Source: Escherichia coli (GTDB lineage Bacteria; Pseudomonadota; Gammaproteobacteria; Enterobacterales; Enterobacteriaceae). Taken from it: 64,000 nucleotides of DNA. The stretch lies in NCBI RefSeq assembly GCF_024223415.1, contig NZ_CP100500.1; one strand, written 5' to 3'. The first letter of the stretch is position 1. Every line of letters starts with the position of its first letter. The position numbers and the translations under genes are program-made. The notes beneath the pieces were generated by a model. The model was not told the DNA's origin and made no database searches. It saw only the letters and a list, made by a program, of their open reading frames with translations. Positions 18,185 to 18,492 of this stretch are shown here, one piece after another.

Positions 18185-18433
18185 TTAGTGAAAAAACCAG
18201 TCATCAGCAGTTTCCCAGACTTCCTGCAGCGTTTCCTGTATGAACTTCTGAGCGTTTTCTTTATCTACGGCTCTTAAAATGGTCAGTCCGTCATTACTGG
18301 CGGATTTTACTATAACCTCCACATCGTCATATCGTTTTCTGATACGGCTAGACATTTCCTGTTGTAGAGCAGGTACAGAGCCTTTTGGCATTTTACTGAA
18401 TTTTTCTTTAGCGATACAGATTTCAATACGCAT
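18185..18433 (-). CDS. dinI: DinI-family DNA-damage-inducible protein
   Basis: [51 protein letters not shown] closely parallels E. coli DinI. Confidence 0.8.
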
Positions 18434-18448
18434 AAAAATCCCTCTACA

Positions 18449-18492
18449 CTGTGTTTGTATACAGTGTTATTTTTAACTGTATGGATAAACAG
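18449..18492 (-). promoter_or_regulatory. Two tandem LexA (SOS) boxes upstream of the dinI-like gene
   Basis: CTG-N10-CAG motifs at 18449-18464 (cactgtgtttgtatacagtg) and 18477-18492 (aactgtatggataaacagtg), 16 and 44 nt from the start codon. Confidence 0.55.

Follow-up and report, generated by a model that had tools for sequence, protein, structure and literature searches.

A DinI-like gene in an Escherichia coli prophage with two predicted LexA operators across its promoter

Does this E. coli prophage carry its own damage-inducible gene for a protein that acts on RecA, and what does the promoter of such a gene tell us about how it is controlled? The question is raised by a short gene in the window (the whole 64-kb stretch of DNA that was analysed), for which a first-pass annotation had described an 82-aa reading frame of the DinI family below two CTG-N10-CAG motifs and had proposed control by the SOS response. 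The elements of the locus, in the direction of transcription, are as follows.

18553-18584, minus strand: upstream intrinsic terminator with a 14-bp stem and a T run (terminator scan)
18493-18498, minus strand: predicted -35 hexamer TTGACA, a perfect consensus, abutting the distal box (promoter scan)
18477-18492, minus strand: predicted distal LexA box, CTGTTTATCCATACAG on the gene strand (20-mer CACTGTTTATCCATACAGTT at 18475-18494), filling the spacer between -35 and -10
18469-18474, minus strand: predicted -10 hexamer AAAAAT after an 18-nt spacer, lying between the two boxes (promoter scan, 10 of 12 matches)
18449-18464, minus strand: predicted proximal LexA box, CTGTATACAAACACAG on the gene strand (20-mer CACTGTATACAAACACAGTG at 18447-18466), covering the predicted start at about 18462
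18440-18444, minus strand: Shine-Dalgarno sequence GAGGG, 6 nt from the ATG (read off the sequence)
18185-18433, minus strand: gene for the DinI-like protein, 82 aa plus stop codon, with an ATG start (RefSeq WP_029400453.1, "DinI-like family protein")
18081-18117, minus strand: intrinsic terminator 3' of the gene, with a 9-bp G+C-rich stem (AGGCGTGTT/AACACGCCT), a 9-nt loop and a T-rich tail

What does the gene encode? Pfam DinI (PF06183) covers the 82-aa protein (E = 1.1e-18, 67.8 bits, model positions 1-63 of 63), and phmmer aligns its residues 1-81 with residues 1-79 of the solved E. coli DinI (1GHH, 7YWA; E = 2.9e-12). PHROG 189, "RecA filament binding protein DinI," also matches (E = 3.2e-26), over positions 71-148 of a 151-position profile whose members include longer proteins. 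Together, these full-length matches bear out the family assignment made in the first reading. The protein resembles the E. coli chromosomal DinI (b1061; 1GHH, 7YWA) in fold family, in size and in aligning with it from end to end, with 45% identity to the K-12 protein. In an alignment of the DinI-like protein with K-12 DinI, Gifsy-1 DinI and four phage relatives, M1, R2, E4, W73, A76, D77, W79 and F80 are invariant, which gives an N-terminal MRxE and a C-terminal W-x-x-A-D-x-W-F. The C-terminal W-E-x-A-D-D/E-W-F helix of DinI is thus kept. This acidic and aromatic helix (WE-x-ADDWF) is said, in work of Voloshin et al. from 2001, to be implicated in RecA contact. By analogy with chromosomal DinI, the DinI-like protein most likely binds RecA-ssDNA filaments.

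The phage protein also differs from chromosomal DinI: it has small insertions and deletions, it is mobile, and it falls under the cut-off for equivalent function. Against the NCBIfam DinI equivalog model NF007893 it scores 68.5 bits, below the curated cut-off of 111 bits, which marks it as a paralogue that could have functionally diverged. By these scores, the protein is a member of a paralogous phage clade and not an orthologue of chromosomal DinI, which is why its RefSeq name is that of a DinI-like family protein.

On the gene strand, the promoter reads c-TTGACA-CTGTTTATCCATACAG-TT-AAAAAT-AACA-CTGTATACAAACACAG-TGTAGAGGGATTTTT-ATG. The 18-nt spacer therefore consists of the distal box and two further bases, and the proximal box starts 4 nt past the -10, over the predicted transcription start. 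Both boxes overlap the core of the predicted promoter and bracket its -10, which, with its 18-nt spacer, is only a fair match.

How strong is the case that LexA binds here? The two CTG-N10-CAG motifs lie just where the first-pass annotation had placed them, with their nearest bases 16 and 44 nt from the A of the ATG, exact to the base. With 25 matches in the window against 14.5 expected, this loose pattern is common and carries little weight alone. The stricter CTGT-N8-ACAG has three matches against 0.7 expected, and two of the three are the boxes of the DinI-like promoter. We scored sites by a Lewis-type heterology index (HI), with a matrix made from 18 proven E. coli LexA sites (Table 4, PMC3009722). 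The proven sites themselves score 1.8 to 12.2 when included in the matrix and 0.6 to 12.8 when each is left out, with the chromosomal dinI box at 6.1 and recA at 5.7. The distal box has an HI of 6.34 with the symmetric matrix and 5.77 on the gene strand, and the proximal box has values of 8.17 and 6.03. Scoring with a LexA matrix had been proposed along with the original observation, and it places both boxes in the mid-range of proven sites; the scores are not weak. When the whole 64 kb was scanned, the only sites at HI ≤ 12.5 were these two. No site at HI ≤ 8.2 occurred in 200 Markov-simulated 64-kb sequences, and the mean under a null of local AT-rich composition was 0.025 sites per 64 kb. 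On these scores, chance does not explain two such predicted sites 28 bp apart on the promoter before a DinI gene. The terminator region contains a third CTG-N10-CAG (18116-18131), which was rejected as a LexA site (HI 16.7).

The unit that this promoter would serve appears to be a small one. The terminator behind the gene, which the automatic scan passed over because its loop limit is 8 nt, has a stem that is present in both the MFE and the centroid fold, and it leaves a UTR of about 70 nt from the stop codon. Between the stop codon and this terminator, there is no minus-strand ORF of at least 20 aa. With a terminator after the gene, no downstream ORF and a further terminator upstream, the unit is predicted to be monocistronic, insulated and about 375 nt long. 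The upstream terminator, in particular, is predicted to insulate the dinI-like promoter from the ORF6N antirepressor unit that precedes it.

Are these features peculiar to one prophage? A related DinI-like gene was found by megablast in 1,359 of 5,426 complete E. coli genomes, about a quarter, and blastn and tblastn recovered a relative in over 100 phage records, among which are many Stx1- and Stx2-converting phages. Named phages with a relative include BP-4795, CP-1639, cdtI, mEp460, P-EibC and the PhiR12 phages. Among 58 related loci from IMG/VR with enough upstream sequence, two LexA sites (counted at HI ≤ 12.5 and at most 80 nt from the ATG) are present in 54, one in three, and none in one. 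The box centres are 28 bp apart in 45 loci and 26 to 29 bp apart in the rest. Seven variants of the distal box and five of the proximal box occur among the relatives, all of which keep CTG...CAG, and the TTAAAAATAA motif between the boxes is also kept. One lineage, whose protein is 72% identical, carries boxes of quite another sequence, CTGTATAAATAACCAG and CTGTACATCTAAACAG, in the same places, and there are likewise two boxes in Citrobacter phage phiNP (59% identity). Sites that change in sequence while keeping their positions are what one would expect under selection for LexA binding at both places. A GAGGG or GGAGG Shine-Dalgarno sequence is common to the relatives and to Gifsy-1.

TTGACA or TTGATA is found in every two-box relative that reaches that far upstream, across five unrelated upstream contexts, and BLAST similarity to most relatives stops at the -35 (query position 453, window position 18502). 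Since similarity ends at the -35 in five contexts, the promoter and gene travel as one portable module. On the other side, the 3' UTR is not conserved: most relatives diverge 0 to 80 nt past the stop codon, only 18 records have query coverage of at least 80%, and no conserved ORF follows the gene across the 58 relatives. Most relatives carry the dinI module just past the 3' end of int, on the same strand (e.g., mEp460 2763-2830). Only a few bases separate the int stop codon from the downstream dinI -35 in mEp460-type phages, and LexA on the boxes would therefore occupy the 3' end of the int transcript.

In the searchable literature, the exact box sequences were found only inside PCR primers for an int deletion in an Stx2 phage, and we found no description there of a second operator in the promoter spacer of this DinI-like clade. 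The EHEC transcriptome papers list only the chromosomal dinI among dinI genes. SOS-regulated phage DinI is already known; the two-operator promoter, with one box in the spacer, is a distinctive conserved feature of this clade.

How does this arrangement compare with the dinI genes that have been studied? Like chromosomal dinI, which has the LexA box ACCTGTATAAATAACCAGTA (PMC3009722, Table 4), the phage gene is predicted to be under LexA control. Unlike the chromosomal gene, which has one box over its -10 and start, 21 nt before the ATG, the phage gene has two that bracket the -10. The dinI homologues of the Salmonella prophages Gifsy-1, -2 and -3 have a LexA box 19 nt before the ATG and a terminator upstream; the Gifsy-2 DinI homologue builds up after mitomycin C, and nalidixic acid raises the expression of all three genes 5- to 23-fold (PMC3121763, PMC8072944). 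The gene described here is like these homologues (Lemire et al. 2011; Merida-Floriano et al. 2021) in being prophage-borne, in having a terminator upstream and in sitting right behind a LexA box. The single box of the Gifsy-1 promoter, TACTGTGTTTATATACAGTG (HI 4.4), overlaps the -10, and together with its Shine-Dalgarno region it is recognisably homologous to the proximal box here. The differences lie in the number of boxes and in the surroundings. Here there are two boxes and a monocistronic, att-proximal unit between the tail-fibre and cargo genes and attR, whereas the Gifsy genes have one box, come first in an operon with the antirepressor gene (gfoA/gftA) and irsA, and lie in the nin region downstream of the replication genes. 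Phage mEp237 and one Klebsiella phage belong to the Gifsy-type, one-box clade.

Taken with the Gifsy precedent (PMC3121763, PMC8072944), the boxes on the promoter core and their conservation in relatives give good in silico support to SOS control as it was first proposed. The DinI-like gene is very probably turned on by DNA damage.

What kind of prophage carries the gene? The window is 100% identical to part of E. coli strain Ch1 (NZ_CP127316.1), with window position 1 at position 419254 of that record, and the DinI-like gene is inside a lambdoid prophage of about 46 kb inserted at the 3' end of ompW. [quoted passage not shown] The remnant is attR and is followed by yciE and the trp operon. 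The adhesin-like and antirepressor-like neighbours named in the first-pass annotation are confirmed by RefSeq annotation and domain matches. Three neighbouring elements bear on what follows.

15876-17801: genes for the 469-aa YadA-anchor protein and then a 151-aa sigma-like HTH protein
18812-19421, minus strand: ORF6N antirepressor gene, with a frameshift in an A8 run at about 19196-19203
19426-19650, minus strand: RNA control module, P1 immI-like, directly before the ORF6N antirepressor gene (Rfam)

The ORF6N gene is the one neighbour that might be thought to share LexA control. We rejected this, as no site at HI ≤ 15 lies nearby and C4/IsrK-type RNAs precede the gene. Rfam finds a C4 antisense RNA at 19426-19510 (78.9 bits), an isrK Hfq-binding RNA at 19538-19614 (72.7 bits) and a c4-a1b1 target at 19575-19627 (44.6 bits, slightly below the gathering score), and a promoter-like TTGACA-N18-TATATT lies before the C4/isrK RNAs at 19650-19621. 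From this layout, the ORF6N antirepressor looks RNA-controlled, not LexA-controlled, and outside the dinI LexA unit. Its RNA control is presumably as in Gifsy-1 IsrK/AnrP or P1 c4/ant. Since this assembly gives the label "frameshifted" to trpE, topA, gpJ, the major capsid gene and one replication gene as well, homopolymer sequencing errors are as likely as real pseudogenes.

The 469-aa protein matches NCBIfam YadA_autotrans over residues 321-468 (E = 1e-18) and PDB 2LME, and it has tandem internal repeats. An Eib identity for this adhesin was considered and rejected: only the YadA membrane anchor matches solved structures, and none of the three matches is to an Eib (immunoglobulin-binding protein). 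The dinI-like gene, for its part, also matches the ECOR-9 phages P-EibC and P-EibA.

The immunity region of the prophage (NZ_CP127316.1, 399236-400483) encodes a 135-aa repressor, a divergent 75-aa Cro/CI-family gene and then a YdaT-family gene, a layout that we take to resemble the DicA/RacR type. In the putative repressor, we found an HTH_3 domain only and no S24 peptidase domain. Without an S24 domain, RecA-stimulated cleavage of the repressor is probably not the induction route of this prophage. The prophage has just one other strong LexA-like site besides the dinI pair, and it is inside the replication gene. This site, TGCTGTTAATAAAAACAGTA (symmetric HI 5.9), lies at 400784 of NZ_CP127316.1 within the O-like replication initiator gene, beside ACCCAAAAACGG iteron-like repeats. 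The replication genes of Gifsy-1 and Gifsy-3 are also listed with LexA boxes (PMC8072944).

How, then, would the DinI-like gene work? In our judgement, it is probable that this is a self-contained, monocistronic SOS gene, in which two LexA operators control a damage-induced mRNA whose DinI-like product likely binds RecA filaments. In an undamaged cell, LexA dimers would occupy the two operators, one in the spacer between -35 and -10 and one over the start, and together they would exclude RNA polymerase from the promoter. Repression would be tight because both operators must be vacated. Upon DNA damage, RecA-stimulated self-cleavage of LexA would free the promoter, and an mRNA of about 375 nt, ending at the terminator at 18117-18081, would be made. 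The 82-aa product would then stabilise RecA-ssDNA filaments and bias which substrates of the RecA co-protease are cut. Multi-operator SOS promoters are tightly repressed. By analogy, the need to vacate two operators predicts low basal expression and late induction, only at substantial damage.

Several other readings of the locus deserve to be weighed against this one. One alternative is to see the LexA promoter as the front of a Gifsy-type induction operon of dinI, a small antirepressor gene and irsA, with DinI as a passenger. Such an operon has been demonstrated in Gifsy-1, -2 and -3 (PMC3121763), and the HTH_3-only repressor here, like the uncleaved Gifsy repressors, may need an antirepressor. 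However, transcription from this promoter would meet a terminator about 70 nt past dinI with no same-strand ORF of at least 20 aa before it, and the 58 relatives likewise lack a conserved downstream ORF. The module is found att-proximally or beside int and so outside the nin region, while the ORF6N antirepressor gene is upstream, behind a terminator. The Gifsy clade is, moreover, another DinI lineage, with 77 aa, 43% identity and one box. We therefore regard a Gifsy-type operon as very improbable. Re-purposing of the protein itself is the alternative that we take most seriously, and it too is unlikely. The DinI-like protein might feed the SOS signal into the prophage switch, in the manner of the DinI-like C-terminal half of phage 186 Tum, or might have a target other than RecA. 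Tum is a LexA-controlled antirepressor with a DinI-like half (PMC3121763). The equivalog score (68.5 against 111 bits), the identity to DinI of only 45%, the longer members taken in by PHROG 189, and the restriction of strong LexA sites in the prophage to the dinI pair and one in the replication gene all agree with a changed role. Yet the C-terminal helix motif that would contact RecA is invariant, and the clade, being spread over many Stx-converting phages and other lambdoid ones, does not follow a single immunity type. In PSP3, it is a gene other than the DinI gene that has the antirepressor activity (PMC3121763).

The remaining two readings concern the nucleic acid rather than the protein. 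The palindromes might not be LexA operators at all but hairpins, such as a plus-strand terminator, or sites for another, perhaps phage, repressor. One of them was indeed flagged as terminator-like on the plus strand (18446-18467; 9 pairs, 3 of them G-C, then a T run), but no plus-strand gene ends there. Both sites fit the LexA matrix far above chance and lie exactly on the -35/-10 spacer and the start site. Their variants among relatives keep CTG...CAG and change in the centre without compensatory pairing. We give this reading hardly any weight, and we give as little to the idea that the 3' UTR of the dinI-like gene is an sRNA against ftsZ of the DinR kind. DinR is a precedent for a 3'-UTR sRNA (PMC10907235), and the UTR here holds UUCUCUCC, an 8-nt complement of the ftsZ Shine-Dalgarno sequence GGAGAGAA. 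However, the predicted ftsZ duplex, at -16.6 kcal/mol, is matched by 615 of 1,000 shuffled UTRs and is no better than those with 48 of 87 other translation-initiation regions, and the 3' UTR lacks conservation. With its LexA-controlled dinI mRNA, of about 350 nt in Klebsiella pneumoniae, and with its 3' UTR and terminator, the dinI-DinR system (PMC10907235) is a fair likeness of the unit described here; the likeness stops at the sRNA, for which the duplex energies and the diverging 3' UTR lend no support here.

The self-contained SOS gene can also be set beside other LexA-controlled phage genes and other multi-operator promoters. Coliphage 186 Tum and the split tum genes of PSP3, Fels-2 and a CFT073 P2-like prophage are LexA-controlled phage genes with a DinI-like module (PMC3121763). 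In those P2/186-type phages, an antirepressor precedes the DinI module or is fused with it, unlike the stand-alone gene of a lambdoid phage here. In CFT073, a "DinI family protein" gene lies beside a small ORF in a P2/186-type prophage and belongs to another clade. It is most likely the CFT073 "dinI-like" gene c0943 that is co-regulated with SOS genes. The presence of more than one LexA box on a single promoter is shared with lexA, recN and colicin genes; in Salmonella, recN has three boxes and lexA two (PMC8072944). What sets the promoter here apart from these multi-operator SOS promoters is its layout, with 28 bp between the box centres, a box on each side of the -10, and one of the two within the spacer.

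What might such a gene do for the phage? The first-pass annotation suggested that it could tune prophage induction, a reasonable idea to which our analysis lends no support. In the only relevant experiment, non-polar deletion of dinI from Gifsy-1 and from Gifsy-3, there was no significant effect on induction (PMC3121763). A bolder proposal is that the att-proximal, two-operator DinI-like module is a portable, late-firing SOS timer, which, by binding RecA filaments, would set the damage threshold or commitment point for induction of all RecA- or LexA-dependent prophages in the cell. In prophages like this one, whose repressor has no cleavage domain, the module could even be the main SOS input, working much as Tum does. 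The proposal arises from the wiring of the clade to two LexA boxes, which in this prophage are the only promoter-associated LexA sites, and we consider it a long shot. The spread of the clade across many Stx-converting phages and other lambdoid ones speaks against a role bound to a single type of repressor.

If LexA control is correctly called, the E. coli SOS regulon gains one more prophage-borne member. Damage-induced phage modulators of RecA could affect how strongly toxin phages are induced by SOS-triggering antibiotics. At the same time, phage genes of this kind are ordinary, widespread and already annotated, the double operator adding a modest twist, and a specialist in SOS or phage biology would not be surprised by the module.

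Two minor observations were made elsewhere in the window. Between the dinI-like unit and the ORF6N gene, at 18700-18769 on the minus strand, there is a further, incomplete C4-like copy in the form of a 44-nt direct repeat with 84% identity to 19468-19511. This copy runs into GGTTCAACTCCCGCCAGCTCCACCA and then a T run, with a weak Rfam match to tmRNA (22.5 bits, E = 1e-6). The 25-mer GGTTCAACTCCCGCCAGCTCCACCA corresponds to the 3' end of E. coli tmRNA (ssrA). The segment may be what is left of an attachment site used by an ssrA-integrating element, or a scar from recombination between phage modules. In the chromosomal flank, Rfam marks the STnc180 sRNA at 40803-41005 (198.7 bits) and the trp operon leader at 28270-28363 (93.1 bits), both ordinary features of the core genome.
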